A stretch of DNA of 63,846 nt, the filler included, from Collodictyon triciliatum (Eukaryota): NCBI GenBank assembly GCA_043381765.1. It is 8 parts of 8 records of this genome, joined end to end, with 100 filler letters (N's around TTAATTAATTAA, not from the genome) between each part and the next. Parts side by side here need not be neighbours in the genome. Positions count along the whole stretch, not along the records: positions 16,682 to 24,916 come from JBHJMP010003516.1; positions 25,017 to 33,246 come from JBHJMP010003517.1; 6 more parts are not named here. One strand, given 5' to 3'. Shown here piece after piece: positions 16,781 through 63,629 of this stretch; the stretch's first letter is position 1, and each line of letters starts with the position of its first letter. The notes below the pieces were generated by a model that did no database searches, had not been told where the DNA came from, and saw only the letters and a program-made list of their open reading frames with translations. Made by a program: the position numbers and the translations under genes.

Positions 16781-17703
16781 GAAAAAGAAAAAGAAAAAGA
16801 AAAAGAAAAAGAAAAAGAAAAAGAAAAAGAAAAAGAAAAAGAACTGTGCACATCTAAAAACTCCATAGTGATTGTACAAGTTCTTATATTTTACCCAATA
16901 TCTTTATGGAACTTGAGGCTGCCATATGCTTTGTCGCTTTCACAATACTTTTCCGATAAAGCACAATAAATCAATAGAAGATGATGCTATTTAACTCTTT
17001 ACTACTGCATTTTTTTGTATTGCTTCTGGAAATGATGGGTTATACCACCGATTCATTCCAAACGACACATAAGCACCCGTGAAGTGTGTGGATGACTACG
17101 CACAAATAAATCTGCATGGGGAAAGAAGATATTCATGATTAATTCCTCAGCCTCAAAATACTCATTTTGAATATAACTCTAAAAACAAGGCTATAGCCAC
17201 TCATTTGAAAACAGTGTACTTGTCAAACTGTGAACTTATGGGATTGGAGAGCATTTTTTGTGCAAAATACAACCATGAGGTATACGATATTACCAAGCCT
17301 GTGATACAACAGACACGAATCCATCCAAGTGCAACATTTGCTAATTGTAAATGTGTCGAGTGGCACTAACTCTTTTTCTCACCTAGCCGTCTGCCACTCC
17401 TATCGTAATTGTACGGGTAACCATCGAACTGCATATATATATATGTCACATTTATATATATTTACAGGTATACGTTTTATTTTTTTCCTTCTTGAGATGT
17501 ATTAAAAGCGATTTATACCCACCGGACGAACTGATTTTGAGCAGAGGTTTTTCTTTCTGTGATCGCTTATTTTATTTTCTGTCGTTTCATATTATGGTTG
17601 GCTATGATTCCTTGCTATCGACGTACTTACATACATCTTCTGCTTCGCTTAATTGGCTATTTTTATTCTCTCCGTTCATAATATATAATATTGAACTATC
17701 CAG

Positions 17704-20700
17704 ACCGCGTACCCACACCCTCTCCGCGCTTCTTACACTGGTGATTCTGGTTGTATCGTCACTCTGCTGGAAAGGAGACAGGTTTGGCTGGTCTTTTACG
17801 TATTTAATTAACTATCGCGGAGTGAGTAAATATTTTGTAATCGAATCTATGAATGTGATTGGTAGAGCTCCAGATGCATGCGACTACAGCAAAAGCGATT
17901 TGTACCTCCTAGAAAAGGAGGAGGCAATAAACCTATTACTGCAGTGGCACTCCGAATTATGTCCAAGCTCCAACCTTGTCCACAAAGGTAACAATCAGGT
18001 GACAAGAGACGGAAGCTACGATTTCTACGAAGAAAGTCTTCGGCTCAATAATTTCCAAAATGGGGACGAAAGGCAATCATTCTACACCACCCCTGATGAT
18101 GTGGTTGCTGATGTAGTGGGTGGATTTACATATAGCAAAGGAGAGGAAGCTTCAGAACTTCGTTCTGAGGAGCAATGCGGAACTTGTAAATCCAATTTAA
18201 GTTACGGTGAAGGATGTCTCCTTCGATGCCTTTTCAAAGCGCTTGAAGGAAACTACTGGCACGATAAAAATGGCTGGAACGATCAATCGACCTCTCATTG
18301 TAATTGGTTCGGGGTCAAATGCGATGTATGTAGTGGTTGTATTTGACATTACTTATATTCCAAATCCAACGTTGCACTGTTTCATTTTCTAATTTTTCAT
18401 TTGCTCAAGCGATGAAGATATGACATAACTGATTAATCAAAGTAAAGATTTTGACTTGAATTTTTTTTTTGAGGTTAGAATAAAAGTCTTGTGACGCATA
18501 TCAAATTACCAGCCAATAACGTGTCTGGAGATATAGGAGAAGCATCCAAGATTTTTTCTGAACTAGTTCATTTGAAAAATATAGACCTTGAATATAATAT
18601 TATTGGAGGCAATCTACCAGACTTTAACTTGACATTAGTAAGAACGTTAAATCTTTATTCCAATAATATAACCGGAAGCATCCCAGACTTCCAATTTCTT
18701 CCGATGGTAAATAAACTGTTTCTTGAGAGCAATCCTCTAGGGGGAACTATACCAGATTTTTCAAAACTCGATCATTTGGAGTTTTTTAACATCGGAGGAA
18801 GCAATAAAATCTATGGTTGATTTGAGTTCATCAGAAAATATTTTTTCTTCTTTCTTTTCTTTTCTTTTCTCAAGTAATTTTACTTTGTAGGCACCATTCC
18901 AAACTTCTCCAAACTTGCATCTCTCTCAATTCTGGGCATTTATGGAACTAATATATCCGGTATTGCTTTATTTGATATTAACTGTATAAAATATGTCAAC
19001 ATTTTGAGATGCTTTTTTTGGCAATATTTATGTAACAAGTCATTCTTCAGGCACTATACCAGACTTTTTGAAATTGGGCTCCGCGACAGAAATAATGCTA
19101 TTTAGTAATCAACTGAATGGTACCTTTTTTATTTTATTTCAAAAATATATCTAACCATTACTTGAATTACATCTTAATGAACATTATTATAGGAACGGTG
19201 CCCAGTTTCTCTTTCCTGCCTAAAATTTCGCGGTTGTATCTATTGAATAATAAATTAGAAGGTATTTTCCATTGAAGCTTATATCTGACTTTTTGACTAA
19301 TACAATATGACTATCTTAGGTACTTTGCCTGACTTTAAGAACATATGCACCATTCTATACCTCTCGGTTTCAGGAAATAAAATCACTGGTATTAAAACAA
19401 TCTCGTTGATTTCATGCATTAATATTGTGAATATATCATGCATCTGACAACATCCCTTCCTCTTGAAATCATAAAGGTGATATCCCCAATTTCTCGGGTC
19501 TCCCAATAGTAAGACAACTGTACTTGTATAGCAATAGCTTTTCAGGTACGTAAATCGCTCTTGATGTGCACCAATCTTGAGTGAGGGGTAATTTAAATTT
19601 CTGGAAGAGAATTATTTATTTATTAGTTTGGTCTGTGTAGGAACAATACCGGACTTCAATCAGACCAAATCTATGATTGGCTTATATGCTGCCAGAAATC
19701 ATCTTCAAGGTCATTATCAATATAATAAAGATACCCCGAATAACGTTTCCGCTATCAATTCAAGGGAATAGAATGGGGCTATGGTTTCATGATATATGCA
19801 TTCAGGAGATGGACATGCGCACGCTATTTTACCTCTATTAATCGAGTATTGATATTTCGCTGCAGGAAGTATTCCAAATTTTAGCCATCTGCAAAACCTT
19901 GCAGTTTTAGATTTATCCAGTAATCGTCTAACGGGTATGTTTGAGTACATCGGTTAATTGGAAAGAGAAACCTATGTAATTTTGGTTTTATTATTTGAGC
20001 TATGTAAGAAAGATGTAAATGATTTTCCTTATTGCCGACCAGGATCCTTGCCTGATTTCTCTTTAATGAAGAGTCTGAAGCATATATCAGCATTTGATAA
20101 CCTTTTAAATGGCACTGTACCAAGCTTTCAAAAATGTCCAACAGTTCTCGAAATCCTTCTTTTTAGAAACAACATGACAGGACCTCTTCCTACTCTTAAT
20201 TCTAGTGTACTGAAAACAGTAGATTTAAGCGAAAACTACCTATTTGGCAGACTTCCATCGAACTGGTCAACACCATCGCTAGAATACATTGATGTATCGT
20301 ACAACCAGATAGAGGGATATGTACCTGGATATTTTGGAGAGCTCAGGAGCCTAAAGTACTTTTCGGTATCACACAACAAACTATCTGGCCGGATACTCAT
20401 ACCCTTTTGGACACTGCCGAGTTTATCATCGATTGACTTGAGTTACAATTTGTTTTCAGGAGACATCGGAGTATTTATTGTTCCTTACGGAAATTTCACC
20501 TTCTCATATGACACATTAGATGTGAGTAACAACTATCTAACCGGAGAATTAAATTGGAGAATATATACGCTACTCACAAAAATTAGGTATATCAGCTTCA
20601 GGAACAATAAAATATCAAGACTAGGAGAATTGAACATTTCTCTAAGGTGGCGCCACTTTGATGTCTCGAAGAACCCGATTGAAGGAAGGATTCCAGAGAC

Positions 20701-23079
20701 GTTCAATAAATTTTCAAAGCTCCAGTATCTAGGTCTCATAGATACAAAGATGAACCACAACTCCGGAAACTACCTCCCCAGCTTCGTGCATTATACAGAG
20801 CCATTCAATTTAAGGAGCAAAAATGATAATTTTGTTTGTCCAACAACCAACTCCAAGCGCAGTCTTTTCGTCATGGTTGTGGACATTGACCCTGCATATT
20901 ACGACTATGCATTGTGCCAATGCTTGCCGAACTATTTTGGGTTCGGGATGAATTGCAGAAAGTGTCCGCCTGGATGTGAATGCATCGATGGGGTGTCGCT
21001 GAAGAATTGTCATGCATCACCTAATGTTATTGGCGTCAAAGACATCTTATACTGCCCTCGCCATGAATCATGTCACACAAAAATACCGGAGAAGCAAGCA
21101 AACACATCCAATCCTCCAGCTATCGAAAAGCTGTGCGAAAAAGGATACGAAGGACGTGCCTGCTCTAAATGTGAGAACGGATATGGCAGACAGGGATACA
21201 CATGCGAGAAATGCGAGGATGGGGCTGTTTACTCGACGATAGTTCTTGGGACACTTGGACTCTGTTGTTTAGTGCTCTACCTGTACCATTCAGATAATCC
21301 AACATCTGGTATTGAATCGTATTTGCAAACAATCAACCGTGTGTCTTCATTTGATTTCTCTCCCTTATTTAAGAGGATGCTAATAATCATAGTAAAAAAC
21401 TTTTTTTTTTGTTAATAAATGTAGAGAAAGTAAAAAAAGCAACACAAAACTCATGCTTACATCATACAGCCAAGTTGCGTATCATCATGTTCCATATGCA
21501 AACCATCTCGGTCATCTCGTCCGGCATCATCGTGCCGAGAGCTACTAGCAACCTGGTGGATCTGTCGTTCTCGATTGGGTCGATTCAACCCCCGAATCTC
21601 GCGTGTGTACTTGGATCAACTGACCAGATGGAAGCCTTGGTGTTCAGCTTCTTGAGAATTCCTGTGTTTTTGATTATTGGACTTATTGCGTATCATTCGG
21701 GGTCAGGACGCTTTCAAACAAAGGTTGGTCATCTTTGAAAGGATTTTTTTTAAGAACAATAGAAATAATGGTGTTTAAGTTTGCGATATCTAGTATATGC
21801 TTACTTCTTGAATCGAATAAAGGAAAAAAAAGTATATGCTTACTTCTCTTTTCTTTCCAATTTTTTCATTCGATTCTCGGACTTTAATCCGGGATTCATT
21901 TTTTTTTTAAGATTGATAAGTTCTGCGGATGATTCGAATTATAGGCTGTCTTCATCACCATAAACATGCTGTTCTTCATCTACTATTCAATCGCAAGAGA
22001 AGTCTTTGGGGTCTTTGGCTGCACTGTTTACGACCAAGGAGAAGATAGCTGGTATCTTCACAATAGCCCGTGGATTGAGTGTCAACCAGCATCTGCAGAA
22101 TACAGAAAATTGATTGGAATGAGTATTCCCGTCTTCTTGTTTTTCTTGATTGGATACCCAGTGTTCATATGGAAAAAGATCGAGGAAATGCAAAACAAGC
22201 CCGGATACGACCCTATAGCGAGATATGGATTTCTGTACTTGCCGTACAAAGAGGTTTGAGTTCAGCACTTGATTTATGACCTTTATATATTGGAACTCAT
22301 TAGAATTGAAAAAGAAGACACCTAGTAAGAATCTATGTTCCTTGAAGTGAATAAATGGAAAGAATATTGATTTTTTTCATCTACTTGCCAGCTTCCTTTG
22401 CCTTTCGAAAGATTTTAAACATGCACCACAACCTTCTGAATAATCAGTCGAATCAATATAATCGCAGAGCTACAGGCACTGGGAGTTTGTGATTATTATC
22501 CGAAGACTCGCATATTCCTTTGTCATGGGAATCATACCATACACCCAGCAACCAATTTTTTATCTTTTGCTGGTGATTGTCATCCAGGTAATGAAATTTT
22601 GATATGTTTTAATGCCACATTTTCAAGAATTTAATTCACATTGTATAACTTTGAGAGTGGTGGGGATTTAGTGATCATATTTGATTTCAAAGAAGGTGGT
22701 ATTATATGTCATATACGTGAAGCTTGGGTTGTGAACTTAGCTTTATTTGTATCATTTGATTCCATATTATCTCGACGGAGGCCAGTCGTCTATATGGATG
22801 CAGAACGAGCACCGCCCGTACAACAGCAAGCTTGAGAACCAAATGGAAATAACAAGTTTATATGTGATTTTCATCTCTTTTGCGCTATCTCTGCTTGTCA
22901 GCTTTCTTGGGCCACACACGTGGGCTACTACCCTCCTCATTGCAATTAATCTAATATGGTGGGTTACAGCCGTATTAGTGGGGTTCATTTTACCTCTTAT
23001 CAAGAAGGGAAATCCACTCAAAATAGTTTGGAAAGAACTGAAGCAGTTGTCCACCAGCGACCCCTGGTTTAATAAATAG
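17704..23079 (+). CDS. Receptor-like membrane protein: signal peptide, LRRNT cap, plant-type LRR array, Cys-rich region, multi-pass TM domain (TRP-like/GPCR-like)
   Basis: Hydrophobic leader TLSALLTLVILVVSSLCW; LRRNT LFKALEGNYW...WN...HCNWFGVKC; LxLxxNxLxGxIP repeats; CQCLPNYFG...CEKGYEGRACSKC; TM region KLRIIMFHMQ...FGC...WYL..SPWIEC...YGFLYLPYK...WEFVIIIRRL...PY...LENQMEITSL. Start codon unresolved (upstream of 17704). Confidence 0.85.
21809..21830 (+). mobile_element. Ultra-short poly(A)-tailed insertion TGAATCGAATAAAGG-A7 with 17-bp TSD (intronic)
   Basis: Flanked by the exact direct repeat AGTATATGCTTACTTCT at 21792-21808 and 21831-21847. Confidence 0.9.
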
Positions 23080-23415: not shown

Positions 23416-23440
23416 TTTTTTTTCCTTATTCGATTCAAAG
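23416..23440 (-). mobile_element. Copy of the ultra-short element (CTTTGAATCGAATAAGG-A8; 1-nt deletion), no clean TSD
   Basis: + strand reads T8-CCTTATTCGATTCAAAG. Confidence 0.7.
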
Positions 23441-24256
23441 AGGAGACGAGAGAATTTATATCAAGCGCAAAAAGAAATAGATATTAACAACTTGGATGCT
23501 ATCCAACGTCTCCCTTTGTCGATTTATTCATTTATTGATTCATTAACATCAACACTTCTGCTTGACTCGTCATATTTTTTTCACCCAACATCGGGGCGGG
23601 AATATGGAAACATGAATAGTTGGAATAAACTCTCATCTTCCTGGAATTCTTTTGGGTGAGATTTTCTATATATTGAATGTTCAGTGCTTGGGTTTGGATA
23701 TGAGCCTCTGCGGGTATGCAACGTAACAGCCTATGAATCCAACAAACCTCATTGTTGCCCGGTTGTGTTACGCTGGCTGCCAAGGCCCCCATGTCCCATC
23801 ATGCACCCCAGCGTCTAAGACGTTGTCATGAAGTGAAGATATCAAGGAAGAACCAAATTCTGTGCCAGATATCTGGGCGCCAGGTTCATCATTTTCTTGT
23901 CCTGCTTCTTGGTCTTTGGTAATATGCGTGTCATTGGGAGATTCTTCGCTGGGTTCCAGGGCAAACCTCCTTTCAATCTCGTCGCCTGCGTTCATAAGAA
24001 AAGATAAAGCATACTTACTATTATGATGCAAAATAGAATATCCACTGAGCGGATTAGGTGATCCCAAGGTGTTCAGCATTTGTGTAAATACACGAAAAAA
24101 AATATGTGATTCATGTTATTCAAATCAACTTTTTATTTATTGATTCCGACTCTCGCTATTAAAAGGTGTTGTGGTTGGACACAAAATCATATTTTTTTCA
24201 ATTATACACAATAATAAGAATTAACATAAATAAAATACAAAAATAGGGTCTTTCTG

Positions 24257-24655
24257 TTAGTCGACTGAGCAAAGCATACAATAACATCCGAGGATATGAA
24301 TTCCCCTCTGGTGCTTTCCATTTGTTTCATTTAATCGTTCCTCAGGCTTCTTTATCCACCACAGACGGCTAAACTCTTCTCTAAAGAAGCTGGGCACTAA
24401 ATACCTCAGTTCATTCAGCGAAGAACTTAGCTGGTCGTTGGAACACATAAGTTTTGACAATGACAAAATTGGTGATATCCTCTGGCTCAAGGAATCTCCA
24501 GATTTGTCGGTCACCTTAACTGAGAGCCAGAGAATGCCTTTGCCATTTGGGCTGAAGTCATTTACAAGACATCCTCCGTAGGCTGCGCTGCTCGTCTTCG
24601 CAACACCAAACATAGGGAAACTGTATACCTTTCCGTCAAAACTGCCCTCCAGAAT
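24257..24655 (-). CDS. Probable terminal exon of an unidentified gene truncated by the contig end
   Basis: AG acceptor at 24657-24656 in frame with a 132-codon open stretch ending in TAA. Confidence 0.45.
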   Translation of the reverse strand: MLEGSFDGKVYSFPMFGVAKTSSAAYGGCLVNDFSPNGKGILWLSVKVTDKSGDSLSQRISPILSLSKLMCSNDQLSSSLNELRYLVPSFFREEFSRLWWIKKPEERLNETNGKHQRGIHILGCYCMLCSVD

Positions 24656-24813
24656 CTAGGTGCGCGGATATCGGATTAATGAAGTGCTTTTTTTATTTGA
24701 AAGAGTCTCATCATATTACTCAGCCGTCTTTCGTTTTCCGCTCCCAAAGAATTAAGGGGGAAAAAAAAAACGTGTCTTGGGCATCAAAAGGGAGTATCAT
24801 GGTTTCTAATTGC

Positions 24814-24844
<31 letters not shown>

Positions 24845-25217
24845 CATACATACATACATACATACATACATACATACATACATACATACATACATACATA
24901 CATACATACATACATANNNNNNNNNNNNNNNNNNNNNNNNNNNNNNNNNNNNNNNNNNNNTTAATTAATTAANNNNNNNNNNNNNNNNNNNNNNNNNNNN
25001 NNNNNNNNNNNNNNNNAATTAAAAGGGTTACTAATATCCCTAATTGCAGGAGGGAAGGATTTACCATGCTCATATGAGCTCATCTTTTAATGTTGCCGGT
25101 ATCTGCTTGAAACTTGGGATACTCGTGAGGTGTGCAATGGGTATGTATCATCCAAAGAAGGATGCGTGATGTGACTTTTTCTATGTTATGATGCACCGGT
25201 ATTATCTTTTTTATAAT

Positions 25218-25243
25218 TTTTTTTTCCTTTATTCGATTCAAAG
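25218..25243 (-). mobile_element. Ultra-short insertion CTTTGAATCGAATAAAGG-A8 with 17-bp TSD
   Basis: Exact direct repeat ATTATCTTTTTTATAAT at 25201-25217 and 25244-25260. Confidence 0.9.
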
Positions 25244-27941
25244 ATTATCTTTTTTATAATAAAAAATTATGGAATACGTTCTAATAGATTCAGACATCAA
25301 AGCGGTGGTTACGTCAATTTGTTAGCCAAGATTGCAGCTCCTTTGGAGTATAGTCACTTGGAAATAATCGAATGGTTCTCATTTGGATTAAGCTAGTATA
25401 TGCAAAGACTTATTGGTGCAACAGTAATTCTGCATCCTATCTCGATATTTCAAATTTTATTACAATCAAAATCTCTTACACAAGTTGGAAGGACGGAAAA
25501 ACCTCTATCAAAATCATTCATATATATGCATTCATGCTTCACGATGGATATTATTTTTAATAAAGCACAAATGGGTAAGATCCATCAATAATTAACATTC
25601 CAAGGAAAACTATATGGTATTTATCAATTTAAACAAATTATTATAGAAAGGAACGAAAAGGAAGGAAATGGTTGTATTTTTTTTTGTTAGTACTGAATAC
25701 ATATATCTCCAAAATCGTGATGAGCCATGAATGCAACTTCTGTGCCCCGCTGGCCTGCACCTTAAACGACATGCGTCACTGTTTTCAACCAAGGTACAAA
25801 ACAATTATGTCGGACTGTAAAAAATCTAAAAGAGGCATGTTGTTATTCCAAGGAGGTTATAGTCCAAGATTCAAGTATAAATGGGATTCATTCACTATCA
25901 ATCTACAATTGATTGCTTCGCACGTACATGCGCAGGGGTTTGGTGATTATTATATTCACTTATCCATCATCAAGAAAACCAACAAATGAATTACACTATA
26001 ATGCGATGGCAATCTGTGGGCAGGGCACAAACCCTCTGTAAGTCGTTAATTACATAAACACAACATCTATATCTATTGACCCAATGACATGTGCTACACA
26101 AATCCCCAAAGAAACCAACTATTCAAAGAATATATCCTCTCACCATCGATTCATTCATGCAGGCTATCCTTGCCGAATAAGGTGGGATAGGCGCGGCGTT
26201 GAGCGCAGCGTGTATCTTTCTTATCTTGGGATGGCTGGGATTTGTAGCGCTCCACACTTAGAACCCGCCCTCGCTGATGACTGAACCACTAATGCGAGTC
26301 ACTACGCAAACTGGTGGGGTATTTTCCAACGGTTATACGCGGTGCCGTATCCTGACTCCGTGGGGAGCAGCCCCATGGCTTCAGCACGGCTCCTGACAGT
26401 AGTGTCTATTGTGGGAAACAATGCACCAACTGTCACGTCCCATGTGCGAACTAGACCCCCAAATTTTTTACTCTTTTATTCTTGACATTCTGCACGTGGG
26501 TTAAGGAATTTGGTTCAGGACAACAGAATACATACATTAAACAAAAGATTTAACCTAATCAATTTTTCTTATTCTTTGATATTCTTTGCCATTTACAATT
26601 ATATTCCACATCAAATTTATGAATGTGACATCCATAACCTATGATTTTTCAATAACATCAATCCACAATCAAACATCTAATCAGCATCAAAACCAATCTG
26701 ACTCGAATCCCTTTTTCCGTCCCCGTCCAAGCGCTACTGCCAAGTAACTCGCACTGAACCCACGGGTAAATCGCTCCTCATTGGGGCAATGCCTTTGTGC
26801 ATTAAGAGTCGGGATAAAGTCGTATGCAATCGGTAACGCCAAGTCCTTGCGACCAGGGTTATCCGTTTATTCAAGTTTCGTACTCCCTTTTTTTCGTTCT
26901 TTTCAAGGCGGGCAGCTTCAGCAACAACTCGCCTCGCAAGCGCGACCTTTTTTTTCTTCTTTTTTTTTTTGTGGCAGCAGCAGCAGCTGGTCGGTCGCCA
27001 ACCAGCCTTGAGTCTCGAGTCGAGTCGACCAGCAACTGTTGTCCGCAACGCACAGCCACTCACACAAGCATACACACTTGCACACACTCAAATGCGAGAC
27101 TCAAAGACCGCAAAGGTAATTTACTGCACCAGAATACGATGAAGTATTCAAACATAAGAAATCAATATTGAATTATTCCATATATCCAGAATAAACAATA
27201 TTGGAACATGGAATAATTTGCCGTCGCTGTGAGAAACCCCAAGGATTGCTCCCTCTGGACTTAAAGCGTTGACAACCTCATGGTAAGGAAGAAGATAAAA
27301 ACATGTATCACGAATAAACATTGAGATTAAAAGCACGGAGGAGCACACAAAGCAAACAAGAAAAGGAAAGTGGTACAATATATTCCGTACCATTATAATC
27401 ATAAATGTAATATTTCCGGAATTTACAATATTTGCGATTATTGTGGCACATATTGAATACTATGCCATTGAAATACCTGAATTATTAAACAAGCGCATAT
27501 TAAATACATAATTAGATATATAGTATTCAACGCTATTCATTTGCTTCTCACTTGTCTCAAAAACACAACAGAGCCAAACCACACACGAACACACGGCCCA
27601 ATCCGCCTACCATCTTATATATATAGAGATGTCTATGACCACATCGTCTTCTCGGAAAATTCGCCGGCTGCAGTGGGATTTTGAAGCTTCCTCCGTTCCA
27701 AATATATGTGTGGGTTTCCGTCTGTCTTCAACCTGCCAACAGATTCCTCTCTCGACGCGCTTGCCATTCTCTCTGTGTGCAACCTAACCACCCCACTCGA
27801 TCAACTCTCGTCCCGTTTGATCTGCCAAGCGCACTTGCGAGACCAATAAACACAGATTAAAACACTGACAGATAACCCAGCAGACTCGCCCACACAGTCC
27901 TCAGAACCTGTCCAAACCGCCTTCGCCCCTTTTCTCTTGAG

Positions 27942-29962
27942 ATGACCGACAAGAATGAGCTTTTGGAAGAGGTCCGAAAAATCTCTGGGGATGCCAACAT
28001 CGCCTCCCTGAAAAGTTCCGAGAGTCTGTCACTCTATGGCAAAAGCCTGACAACTGTTCCTCAGGGTGTTTTCTTGCTGACAGGTCTCAAGGTATTGAGT
28101 CTCTCTGGCAATCGGCTCTCCTTACTGGCACCGAAAATATCGTGTCTGTCTGGTCTCACATTTCTTAGTGTTCGTGAAAACAAGCTGTCATCGCTGCCTT
28201 CAGCAATATCCCGTTTGACTGGTCTCAGTGAGCTTGATGTTGGCGACAATCAACTGTCATCACTGCCACCAGAAATATCCCGTTTGACTGGTCTCAGTGA
28301 GCTTTATGTTAGCGACAATCAACTGTCATCACTACCACCAGAAATATCCCGTTTGACTGGTCTCAGTGGGCTTTATGTTCAAAATAACCCGGTATGTTTT
28401 TATTCCTTTGCTGTTCTGTTCGCATTCAGATTAAAATAGAAAGTGACTGACAGCGATTCATACAGATGGAAGAGCTCCCACCACAAATGACAACGCTGAC
28501 GAATCTGCTGAGACTCCGGATGTGGGATGGAAGCAAGGCTGACATTCAGAGGGCACCACGCGGCATAACAGCACTCCCGCTGTGGACAAACTCGAGTTTT
28601 TGTGACTACGAATACATCCACAAGATCAAACTCACCGATTCTGTAAGCACACACCTGCCCACCATTTACCAACCCAGAATCAATCCGCTCATCATTTATC
28701 CAACTCTGAGACAGTCTCCATCGACACAGGTCGCGACCAGCCCCAACGTCCTGCCAGGTATCTATGCTGCCCCAACACCAACATCAGCCCGAGGCCCAAC
28801 ACCAACACCAACACCAACACCAACATCCGCCCGAGGCCCAACACCAAAATCAGCCCGCGGCCCAACGAGATCGCCCCCTGCAGAAGACCCTGACAGCGCC
28901 CCGGTTGTTGGAGACTACGCAGACGTGATGGGGGTCGACCTCACCAGGCAGGAGGTACTCGGAGAAGGCAGCTTCGGGACGGCGTACAAGGTGCAGCTGC
29001 GCAAGGGCACGGTGGCTGTCAAGGTGCTCAAGAAGAAGGCGAAGCCAGGAACGGCAGGGTACGAAGATCTGACGGGCGAGGCGAGGCTGATGTTGGAGCT
29101 CTCGCACACAAACATCATCGGCCTCTACACCTACGGCTGCAAGAGCCAGACCATCTTCTATGTCATGGAGTACGCCGACGGTCGCAGCATATGGGACGTC
29201 ATCAAGCCGCCCGCGGGCAGTGCGATACCTTTCGCCGACTATATCCAGTACTCACTCCACATCAATGCCGGCCTCAAGTACTTGCACACACGCACCCCGC
29301 CCGTGGAGCATCGCGACCTCAAGCCTGAGAACGTCCTCCTCTGCCGCGGTGTTGCAAAGATATGCGACTTTGGCCTCTCCACAGCCCGCGAAACCATCTC
29401 CCGCACGACCGGCTTCAGAGGCACACTCCACTACGCTGCCCCAGAATACTTTGACAGGGACAAAGGCTACGGACCCCTGAGCGACATTTACACCTTCGGC
29501 CTAGTTATCTGGGCCATGGCTGAGGGCAAGCGCCCGTACGATGGTCTTAACATGGGCCAGATCATGAACGAGAAGCTGCAGCAGAAACTCCCGCCGATTC
29601 CCTCCGCCACCCCCGCCAAGCTGGTCGCCCTGCTAAACCAGTGTTGGTCCTTCGAGCCGCGTGGCCGCCCCTCTGCGACCGACTTGGAGTTCAGGCTGGC
29701 CGACATCAAGACAAATCCAGACCCCGACAATGGCAAAAAGAGGAAATCTGTCAAGGATATGACAAACCCCGAGCTTGTTGCCTATCTCAAAGAAAAGAAC
29801 GTGTTGTCAAACTTCGTATCTGTGATTGAAAAGATGGAAAATTTTCCTGGGCGATTGTTTATCCAATTGGTGGAGCGTGACCTAACCTTTGCCCCCTTCA
29901 ACTTAGGAGAAACACAAGCTTTTCTCATTTTTGAAATAATCAAAGAGGCAAAAACCTCTTAA
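27942..29962 (+). CDS. LRR - Pro/Thr linker - tyrosine-kinase-like (TKL) protein kinase - SAM-like domain
   Basis: LRR exon 27942-28391, intron 28392-28465. Kinase motifs GEGSFG, VAVK, HRDLKPEN, DFG, GTLHYAAPE. C-terminal VKDMTNPELVAYLK...FPGRLFIQL is SAM-like. Possible extra in-frame intron from 28643. Confidence 0.92.
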
Positions 29963-30206
29963 CCAGATTTCTCACATACCCATAATTCCTCCTCTCGTTT
30001 TCCCGATTATTGATGCTTATGCCCACCCGGCCTGTGAGACTCATCCCCACCTTCCCACGCCCACCACATCTCAACCCACACAACAGAATAAAGTTTACTA
30101 TATGAAAAGAGAACTGGCTGCGTCCCTTCTGGTGGCGAGAACTGTAATTAACTCCGTTTTTTGGGTGGCAAATAGTTCGTTAAGAAGCTGGTCGGTCTGC
30201 GGGAAG

Positions 30207-30236
30207 TTTTTTTTTTTTCCTTTATTCGATTCAAAG
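30207..30236 (-). mobile_element. Copy of the ultra-short element (CTTTGAATCGAATAAAGG-A12), no clean TSD
   Basis: + strand reads T12-CCTTTATTCGATTCAAAG. Confidence 0.8.
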
Positions 30237-30700
30237 TGCAGCGAGGTTATGCCATGCATGAGGTGAGAAAAACGTTCATGGTAGGGAGGCAACGCGAGTA
30301 GGAGAAGACACTACTGTGGAGAGGCTTTCACTGGAAAGAACTCAGTGATAGCGAGTTGGTCAGGTGGGCGGCCCAAATGGTTGATTGGCTGCGTGGGAAG
30401 CAGGGGTTGGATATGTTGCGGGATATATCTTTAGACACATCACCACATCTGAAGCGAGGATTGGGTTTGGGTATTCGTTTCTTGCATAGAATCGCCACAC
30501 CTGCGAGTCGGTTGATTATCGTCACAGGACGACATTTGTGGACCTTTCCATGATTCATTATTGGTTAGATTGTCAGGGCTGAGCCATGTTTCTTGGAGGC
30601 AGATGATGTCTGCATGAGTGAAAAGAGCAGTGTTTAGGGCCTCTTTTCTTTTTTGGGGGTCGTTAATACCCCCAACGTTCCACAACAGAACGTTAAAATA
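30237..30700 (-). mobile_element. Decayed non-LTR retrotransposon APE-type endonuclease fragment
   Basis: LLWNVGGIND...ADIICLQETWL, then after a frameshift AGVAIL, and later NVFSP (NVYAP-like). These are the ordered motifs of LINE apurinic-type endonucleases. Frameshifts and stops are present. Confidence 0.8.
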
Positions 30701-31593
30701 TATGGATAGTCTATTAGGTTTTGGAGGCCGTTGAGTCTGGTGATTAAACCTCTCCGCTGGAGCTGGGTTGCTCAGAGTGGGATGGTTTACTCGAGTTACT
30801 CTTTATTTGGCTGTTACCATAATTGCTTGTGATTCTGCAAATTTTCACTCTATGAACAAAACACATAATTCTCTCTCGTATTGTTACTGCATAAATTCAT
30901 TGAGGTCTTTCTGTTGCTGTGTCTAACATCGTCGAACTGGCCGAAGCATTTATTACGTCTCCATCTGAGGCTGAACAGTTCTTAAAAAACTTTCAGGAAG
31001 CAGGCTCTTCGGCTCGTAAGAGGTACAGAAGCATTTTGACAGGTGCTACAACCTACAAGTTTCAACAGAACGAACGAGTCATTTCCTTTGCATTCCTGGT
31101 ACACTGCATAAGGGCAGTAACATGTTTATTTTCTTGGCTGTAATATACACTTTTTGTTCTACTCCTGTTTTCATGGGCTTTAGTCTAAGTGGAGCTGGTG
31201 TTGTCAGTTCCATTATTCATCTTCTCCGTTCGTGACTTTCTTACATCCTTCAAGGGGTATCTTTTATTTCAAATTTAATGAGTGAATCTGAACACTGTTT
31301 AGCGCATATATTCCTTGGGTATTGCTTGACTTCGCAAATAATACTGTAGATATATATTGAATTACCAAAAAACAAAAAACAAAAAACAAAAAACAAAAAA
31401 CAAAAAACAAAAAACAAAAAACAAAAAACAAAAAACAAAAAACAAAAAACAAAAAACAAAAAAATAAATAAAATAAATAAAAAACATATAAAAAGAAGAG
31501 CAAGGAGCTCTTTCACGTTTTTATTTGGGTTCATGAAAATCACGAATTTTTGTTCCAATCGTTTGTAAGAAAGGACATCTAAATTCTCGTGCT

Positions 31594-36184: not shown

Positions 36185-37062
36185 TTATCTGTCCGAGGTG
36201 GTAAATTGAATCAAGGAGGCGAATAGTTTTTCCACAATCTTGCGCAAGGTGGAAAGGAAGAATAAAAAAAAAAAAAGTGAATAGTTTGAGTGCGTCGCAC
36301 TGGAAATGTGACAGGAAGACTCAATGTCCCTTGTTTGTGGACGTCAGCCCACATCGACCGATTGGCATGAGTATTTTCAAACGCAACTACAAGGTGAAAA
36401 TTATATGCATTTGGCGTATGGTTTCAGATATCTTTAGTTTCGCGTGCAGGATTCTTGTTCAAATCTCTACGGTAAAATGTCCATCATCTCATCAAGGTTT
36501 TTTTTGTGAAATAGGTGATTGATAGTAAAGATTTGATTGCACAGTGCTACCTCTGAAATCAGGCAAGAGCGTTTGAACACTTTCGACTAATGGCAAAACA
36601 ATAAAGTCGATAAAGTTGAGAGTCATTTTGGCTGGGTCGGTGTCGTTGCGGTCCATGTATGGTGACACAGCAAATCCAATCTTTTTTTCAATGTCCCCCT
36701 GCGGAGTGGAAAATAGTGTTTATGGTTAGCCTATGTTCCTGATGCTATGCAATCATCTGATGTATGCCTTGTACTCATCGCCAGATACGAACAAAAAAAA
36801 GCATCTTGATTATAACTCAGAGCTTTTTTTTACGAAATCCCTTAAATCATGCTTCAATTACATTCAATTATTTATTGTTTTTACAAAAAATAAATAAATA
36901 AATAAAAAAGATGACTTGTGACAGGAACTCCGCCATGACTCTTTCAGACCATCCTCGCGCAACATCCGGCGGTCGCATTACATTCCCTAAATCAGCCGTG
37001 TGGAGAATCATTCCAACAAGGAGCACACGGTCATCAATACTGCAAGGATTAGGTATGTAAAT

Positions 37063-52649: not shown

Positions 52650-53648
52650 TCTGTCGGCGGTCTGTGTGGGTATGTTTGCCGGTGGTGTCTACGGGGTTTG
52701 CGGGTTGTGTGCTGAGTTGTGTTGTCTTGTGTTGTATAGTGTTGTGCTATGCTTCCTTCAACTCATGTTGTGTTGATAAAATTGTGTGTGTGGGTGAATA
52801 AGCACGCTGCTTATATGCAGGCTGCGAAACGGCCCTGGTGTTGTCTTTTAGTTCATTCAGGCCACAGTTCTTGCCACAAGACAGACACATGATGTCACTC
52901 TCTGTGGCTTTGTTTATACAATTATTTTCTGTTGTTAATTTTTTTTTCCATGAATTTTGGTTTTAGATTCGATTTGATTCGATCGAAATGAGTTTGGCTG
53001 GGACAGAAATGAAATCAGTCTGTAGAATGATACATGCGGGAACCGGGGCTGGGTTTTTGGGATATTTTGTTGTGATAGAAAACAGCTAAAAAGTTTGCCT
53101 GAACGCAAAGGAAAGCGTCGGTCTTTTTGTGACTATTCTTGATGTTCTAGTTTTTTTTTCTTTTTTCTTTTCTTCTTCTTTGTTCATGTGGGTTGATGGG
53201 ATTGATGGAAGTATTCGCCGCTTGGTTGCTTGCTGGGTTCGTAATGGCGGGGTTTTTTGAATTCCCGTAATCGATGAAAATGTGGATTCCCCATATTAGT
53301 CGTGTACAATGGCCGGGATTCCCACCATTCCCATGAATCTAACACTAACGTTTTGAGTGGAAGCATGGGAATAGCGGATACCCGAATATGACACACATCC
53401 TGTAGAGGCTTATTTTATTAAAATTGTTTTCCTATGATATTTGATATAATATTACTATATATGTAGACAAATGGATCATTAGTATAATATAATAGAATAT
53501 TACACATAATATCCACAATTGGATATAGAGGTGCTTGTGGCTTTCTTCTCTTGACCTGTTAGCCCATTATTTTCCGTGGGTGCGGTAGGAACTGGCGAGC
53601 GGCCGGGTTTGCTGCTCATTGCGAATGCGCAAGGAGGCTAGCGATAAT

Positions 53649-53671
53649 TTTTTTTTTTCCTTTATTCGATT
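53649..53671 (-). mobile_element. Ultra-short insertion (TTG)AATCGAATAAAGG-A10 with 19-bp direct repeat (3 nt shared with the element as microhomology)
   Basis: Exact repeat CAAGGAGGCTAGCGATAAT at 53630-53648 and 53672-53690. Confidence 0.9.
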
Positions 53672-53721
53672 CAAGGAGGCTAGCGATAATAGACTAGTGC
53701 TACTCTTTTGACTATCTGACT

Positions 53722-60645: not shown

Positions 60646-63629
<2,984 letters not shown>

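Follow-up and report, generated by a model that had tools for sequence, protein, structure and literature searches.

Very short 3' tips of an L1-like LINE with preferred 5' ends in the genome of Collodictyon triciliatum

Copies in the window and their parent LINE

We analysed 63,846 nucleotides of the genome of Collodictyon triciliatum (GCA_043381765.1, 75 Mb in 14576 contigs), a stretch that we call the window throughout. Its contigs carry leucine-rich repeat (LRR), kinase and F-box genes, and a short motif with an A tail occurs five times in the window (Table 1). These tiny repeats are the 3' tip of a long interspersed nuclear element (LINE) of the L1 superfamily (L1/Tx1), inserted by target-primed reverse transcription. 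An earlier note on this DNA had described three of them as a tiny element with a fixed 5' boundary at the base of a small stem-loop. The span in question (23416-30236) crosses two contigs, and the runs of N with a short fixed spacer found about every 8.3 kb (24917-25016 and six similar ones) are contig joins.

The motif CTTTGAATC lies at 23432-23440, 25235-25243 and 30228-30236, always on the minus strand. Sequence comparison agrees that the three copies start with it and differ from each other upstream. This 9-mer alone is not above chance, as 14 of 100 shuffles reach three occurrences. The 12-mer core has eight matches in the window at one mismatch or less (0.86 expected), and a 19-mer has 1419 exact matches in the genome against 0 with the reversed control. 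Window-wide repeat finding was swamped by simple repeats. The fixed boundary did not survive the comparison: only the copy at 25243 is clean, and the copy at 30236 continues into the 3' untranslated region (UTR) and second open reading frame (ORF2) of a LINE. The boundary of the copy at 23440, of which 36 nt (23450-23416) align at 89% to the LINE end, is ambiguous. The overlap of 1 to 3 nt with the target, which the same note had seen in the shorter copies, is indeed found in those at 21808 (1 nt) and 53674 (3 nt).

The domains of the parent LINE (family 1) were read from separate loci, since no single full-length copy was seen among those fetched. An APE endonuclease domain (PF03372) was identified in locus L033 (E 9e-20), with L1 endonucleases as best solved matches. 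The reverse transcriptase domain (PF00078) occurs in the fragment L049, beside an APE match of family 1, and its best solved relative is human L1 ORF2p (E ~1e-17, versus 1e-8 for R2). A zinc knuckle (zf-RVT, PF13966) is found at the C-terminus of ORF2 in L038 and P0001. In L038 the ORF2 stop is followed by a short 3' UTR and the A tail, and in L060 a frame of 474 aa without Pfam match, a candidate ORF1, lies upstream of APE. A genome search with the region 30448-30838 returned 40 scored places with the endonuclease start, mostly at 84-87% identity. Comparison with a protein atlas gave generic endonuclease clusters only, and a metagenome scan gave a single contig with a long copy (L415). A short interspersed nuclear element (SINE), or micro-SINE, is a poor fit for the tips: the short copies consist of nothing but the last bases of the LINE, with no 5' head or promoter distinct from it, and no fixed 5' end.

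The LINE copy that ends at 30207 aligns with L023, a further copy, over 155 nt (83% identity), and diverges from the main family 1 at 30255. This internally deleted copy and about 520 nt of its upstream flank (30219-31360) recur at 94% in L032 (G000:C10567), where about 130 extra bases follow the tail, which indicates an older duplicated locus. The distance between its tail at 30207 and the end of the neighbouring LRR and kinase gene is about 245 nt. Contigs from one public run (X1) pile up on 30057-30476 at a depth of 627-914; elsewhere the depth does not exceed 43. Three of them have a loose end at 30246 (28 nt), and a loose end at 30255 coincides with the divergence from the main family. 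Whether X1 is RNA is a guess and contigs do not reveal where transcripts start, hence we did not use it as RNA evidence.

The sequences QLAITDFF (17 matches) and QFLITDYF (22, both counts redundant) end the ORF2 proteins of family 1 and of a sister LINE, e.g., at 30335-30358 (minus strand) in the window, in L038 and in L340. They resemble the consensus of the PIP box, a PCNA-binding motif. This putative C-terminal PCNA motif of ORF2p may bear on the finishing of insertions. The PIP box of human L1 is in the tower between the endonuclease and the reverse transcriptase (PMC10830420).

Table 1. Features of the window, by position
Feature	Positions	Strand	Remarks
725-aa LRR protein	259-2436		LRR-rich gene
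Two long open frames, 276 and ~886 aa	4783-8291	-	First contig; no Pfam match
Receptor-like LRR protein	17387-21415		LRR-rich gene
16-nt LINE tip + A8	21808-21831	+	1-nt target overlap; 17-bp duplication 21792-21808 / 21831-21847
Older, decayed LINE tip	23416-23440	-	One A missing; may reach ~23450; no clean duplication
3' copy of the 17-bp target duplication	25201-25217	-	Belongs to the insertion at 25243; first A common with A tract
Clean 18-nt LINE tip + A9	25217-25243	-	Blunt 5' joint; 17-bp target duplication
5' copy of the 17-bp target duplication	25244-25260	-	Belongs to the insertion at 25243
LRR + kinase	27876-29962		LRR-rich gene
3' tip + A12 of longer LINE copy	30207-30236	-	No 5' boundary
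ORF2 end + 3' UTR of LINE copy ending at 30207	30219-30450	-	80% to L038 over 218 nt
Upstream-frame end + APE endonuclease start (PF03372)	30448-30838	-	Joined to ORF2 end with large internal gap; 3 nt overlap
Diverged short tail of sister LINE (family 3)	36230-36276	+	Candidate 9-bp duplication remnant 36221-36229 / 36279-36287
16-nt LINE tip + A11	53648-53674	-	3-nt target overlap; 19-bp duplication 53672-53690 / 53630-53648
F-box/LRR	61113-63245		LRR-rich gene

Lengths, 5' ends and target junctions of the inserts

We counted nested exact tails followed by five A genome-wide, with 0-2 matches in reversed controls. The counts were 1747 (at least 10 nt), 1419 (14 nt), 1112 (18 nt), 468 (20 nt) and 336 (24 nt). 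The loss per base over the successive intervals was 5.1%, 5.9%, 35% and 8.0%, rates that include mutation and a second tail family. The value of 35% belongs to the step from 18 to 20 nt, where 58% of the copies are lost across two bases. By these counts, which favour young copies, the 5' end falls at 18-19 nt in 644 of 1747 cases (37%), and 81% of the copies stay below 24 nt. The 5' end of family 1 is therefore strongly preferred, not fixed, and lengths run from about 10 to more than 140 nt.

The samples that follow were drawn from the first-numbered contigs. Among the first 100 copies listed, 73 start 0-8 nt upstream of the core and 27 further upstream; the mode lies 4 nt above the core (CTTT, 18 nt), with 24 copies. 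At the short end of the range, 13 additional copies were viewed; most start inside the core and have duplications. On the long side, 98 of the first 100 longer copies listed are continuous in length from 24 to more than 140 nt; 12 of these 98 stop where their contig does, and 17 extend as far as the 128-nt reference. A second peak is found at 28 nt (11 of 57 exactly there, 19 of 57 at 27-29 nt, versus 3 and 8 in the flanking bins; P ~0.0007 in a post hoc test). Longer copies with common upstream sequence thus form a continuum, which the earlier note had taken as the mark of normal 5'-truncated tails, yet the distribution is far from dispersed. The broader view of that note, that this is not ordinary truncation, is borne out by the lengths and by junctions that look like template ends.

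Inserts of family 1 below 10 nt are rare: 28 matches against 9 in the control, about six of them genuine by eye. The length of the A tract was not significantly correlated with that of the element (rho -0.22, P = 0.13, 50 copies, a few extents being inflated), and a fixed total length of the cDNA was rejected on this ground. A scan for A-tailed inserts flanked by duplications in 481 kb of fetched (redundant) DNA, insensitive to A-only inserts, gave 97 inserts, of which 82 had a family-1 or family-2 tail. The other 15, the shortest of 13 nt, were reverse-strand re-detections, tail variants, one copy of family 3 and likely chance matches. One 28-nt-extended insertion is present with its flanks on two contigs (L242 and L252), a duplicated locus, and two copies (L254, L256) sit inside the ORF2 end of another copy of the family-1 LINE.

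Two other tail families were identified. The tail of family 2 has its last 16 nt in common with family 1 and is otherwise different; the main end of family 1 lies 2 nt beyond this block. Tails of family 2 (L147-L176) look more diverged, and in place of GG and pure A they often have 3-5 G or a mixed tail at their end. Family 3 is a sister LINE with a different tail (927 exact copies), which ends a zf-RVT open reading frame 44% identical to that of family 1 over 248 aa. The first 75 copies of family 3 listed have a median length of 35 nt, with 66 of at most 50 nt, 9 of at most 22 nt and 4 of at least 100 nt. Their modes are at about 22, 33 and 42 nt. A periodicity of about 10 nt did not reach significance: the best period was 11.25 (P = 0.09-0.10), and the test by alignment gave P = 0.12-0.13. 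Below 10 nt we found 36 matches of family 3; nearly all of the 30 viewed were point variants of longer copies. Extreme shortness is thus common to the families, and the preferred ends are family-specific, which argues both against a hairpin of family 1 and against a pure length ruler. The two LINEs also nest in each other: a short family-3 tail lies reversed within a family-1 3' UTR (L038:1340-1400) with a 9-bp duplication, and L300 has the converse arrangement.

To describe the junctions we took 126 copies of family 1 with a duplication of at least 11 bp, the minimum of the caller, from targeted and incidental finds. We set aside seven in which over 6 bases were left unexplained, and kept 119. 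Duplications were of 15-18 bp in 97 of the 119, mostly with 1-3 leading A, and TT preceded the site in 69. The 5' joint was blunt in 45 cases, had extra bases in 34 and overlapped the target in 40 (40 of the 85 without extra bases). The frequency of overlap was at chance in all length classes (P = 0.27, 0.86, 0.89), e.g., 10 of 28 in the class of 18-19 nt versus 12.9 under the null. Twelve of the 45 blunt joints lie exactly at 18 nt, and 19 at an A|C step, which largely reflects the two peaks. Since most joints are blunt or have extra bases, and since overlap is no more frequent than chance, they resemble either the ends of templates or the products of direct end-joining.

Possible causes of the shortness

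The reading that we favour, at a little under an even chance, is that copying usually begins on a template that has been shortened beforehand, i.e., that 3' remnants protected by proteins are copied to their end. After translation, degradation or cleavage would remove the LINE RNA from the 5' side until it meets the stretch that proteins cover at the 3' end, and this would leave a ladder of 3' remnants with preferred ends specific to each family. ORF2p would copy a remnant to its end, sometimes add untemplated bases, and then jump onto the nicked top strand in the same way as with full-length L1. A hairpin would not be needed at the boundary. The addition of untemplated bases and template jumping have been described for ORF2p, and cleavage of RNA or intermediates by the host has been argued to truncate insertions (PMC10830420). 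Pre-truncated templates have been proposed for short human pseudogenes (PMC2831318). The processed fragment suggested in the earlier note lives on here as a ladder of preferred ends, and no longer as one discrete hairpin RNA.

Several points weigh against pre-shortened templates. The evidence consists of assembled contigs, and counting by exact match over-represents young copies. In the short class the overlap is on average larger than under the null (1.14 versus 0.77, P = 0.006; at least 3 nt in 7 of 64), hence some joints were annealed, and some of the apparent extra bases may stem from a decayed duplication. The peaks of family 3 fit no one common footprint, and their periodicity falls short of significance. 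Direct end-joining of aborted cDNA in the zebrafish element ZfL2-2 gives similar joints, with about 40% extra bases and about 50% microhomology (PMC2666801), and oligoadenylated L1 ends were reported to be poor substrates in human cells (PMC11014359).

These joints lead to the other reading that we take seriously, as a real possibility clearly below even: early abort on an intact template, the cDNA being captured by the pre-nicked top strand or by host end-joining. The top strand is nicked while the first strand is being made, and a switch that comes too early has been proposed to truncate insertions (PMC7617806); LINE inserts are shortened by Ku70 and Artemis (PMC2666801). The rarity of inserts below 10 nt in families 1 and 3, the shortness of all three tail families, which points to a shared property of the host or clade, and the real overlap at a minority of joints would also fit. 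However, the frequency of overlap is unlike that of truncated human L1, no strong structure is predicted at the pause, and a pure length ruler fails, as the peaks differ between families (18 and 28 versus about 22, 33 and 42 nt) and A tract and element are not significantly anti-correlated. It is very improbable that shortness is not mechanistic at all, and that long copies were removed by selection, later deletion or assembly bias. The assembly is fragmented, with copies that stop at contig ends, selection against long LINEs is documented (PMC3381678), and the exact tail is kept in only 8 of 30 long copies of family 3, so that old long copies are undercounted. Yet the counts use the 3' junction, which copies at contig ends retain, the intact duplications adjoin the short inserts, which rules out random deletion, and selection is unlikely to distinguish 19 from 21 nt, where more than half of the copies are lost.

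Stringent LINE tails are recognised by a stable 3' stem-loop. A stable, covarying one was not found in the tails studied here. The 5-bp stem of the earlier note can be drawn, but has no predicted stability: its forced energy is 0.0 kcal/mol, its pairing probability in context is 0.00-0.38 (12 long copies, four lengths), and the minimum-energy structure of the tail RNA alone is unfolded (z = +0.73). Of 56 anchored copies of family 1, one was dropped for an indel and the other 55 show no variation in the stem, an invariance largely forced by the fetch patterns and thus uninformative; there is no compensatory change, and family 2 reads CCTTG, with a C-A mismatch in the stem (~57 of 80 matches). 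Because the stem lies within the copied segment, we infer that it cannot stop the enzyme at its own 5' foot. A micro-SINE, in the form of one discrete hairpin RNA of 18 nt and poly(A) that the reverse transcriptase would recognise, is hardly credible to us: it would explain the mode and the blunt joints at 18 nt, but lengths are continuous, family 3 is short without such a stem, and every base of the sequence belongs to the end of the LINE itself. Nor do we expect much from a weak predicted hairpin further upstream in the 3' UTR (UGGC/GCYA), which stops 2-3 nt short of the main breakpoint and would block the enzyme if stabilised by protein; we hold it to be quite improbable. Its GC core pairs with a predicted probability of 0.7-0.9 in most of the 12 long copies folded, one common variant keeps the pairing (U-A in 38 of 55, U-G in 17), and folding predicts a hairpin of this kind in family 3 too. 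On the other hand, folding is no better than in shuffles (z -0.25 and +0.33), the invariance is largely forced by the search patterns, and the peaks of family 3 are not at the same position relative to the stem.

The template that is short from the start can be extended to a bolder claim, in our view rather unlikely: most LINE insertions in C. triciliatum would be copied from decay remnants, with 5'-to-3' decay stalling at protein footprints about 10 nt apart (18 and 28 nt in family 1; ~22, 33 and 42 nt in family 3) and ORF2p retrotransposing these minimal ribonucleoproteins (RNPs) by template jumping from end to end. If true, RNA decay would be a defence that reduces almost every jump to a scar of about 45 bp that does no harm, and the RNP footprint could be read from the genome base by base. 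The more than 2,600 copies with exact tails in the two sister families (1747 and 927) give breakpoints at base resolution, with sharp peaks and joints that resemble template ends. The cause of the frequent 5' truncation of LINEs is poorly understood (PMC10830420), and such extreme, position-biased shortening is a natural test of why they are usually cut short. Scars of 25-50 bp are likely to be below the usual limits of repeat annotation, and estimates of LINE activity in similar genomes may for this reason be too low.

Comparison with known systems

Truncated LINE tails are ordinary in kind. The 18-nt mode, the base-sharp peaks and the chance-level microhomology were not found in print; our search for ultra-short or hotspot LINE truncation found no description of it, subscription papers and supplements being outside its reach. 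ZfL2-2 combines recognition of a 3' stem-loop with a repeat tail. The inserts resemble the products of its direct 5' joining in their many junctions with extra bases, and end-joining factors shorten its inserts, but ZfL2-2 is of the L2 clade and the accessible text describes no peak at about 18 nt (PMC2666801, PMC4760211). The 5' deletions of TRE5-A are typical ones, without such ultra-short lengths in the text available (PMC3159450). Short human mRNA pseudogenes identified with TSDscan are also short A-tailed 3' fragments, with a duplication of about 15 bp and a proposed origin from pre-truncated RNA. Yet they are up to 300 bp long, derive from host mRNA and are explained by joining at microhomology (PMC2831318), whereas the inserts described here are about ten times shorter and derive from a LINE.

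The closest parallels are with human L1. Like 5'-truncated L1 copies, the inserts come from an element with APE, reverse transcriptase and zinc knuckle in ORF2, have an A tail, a TT|A target and a duplication peak at about 15-17 bp, and most copies are truncated (PMC7617806, PMC2912911). Truncated human L1 often keep a few hundred bases (PMC10830420), whereas four fifths of the tips are under 24 nt, with single-base peaks. About 80% of the truncated human copies show microhomology and 14.6% have extra bases (PMC2912911), in contrast to the overlap at chance frequency in a third of our junctions. In their chance-level microhomology, extra bases and narrow duplication length the tips are more like full-length L1 and Alu inserted by template jumping (PMC2912911, PMC10830420), except that the apparent end of the template lies 18-28 nt from the tail and not at the start of transcription.

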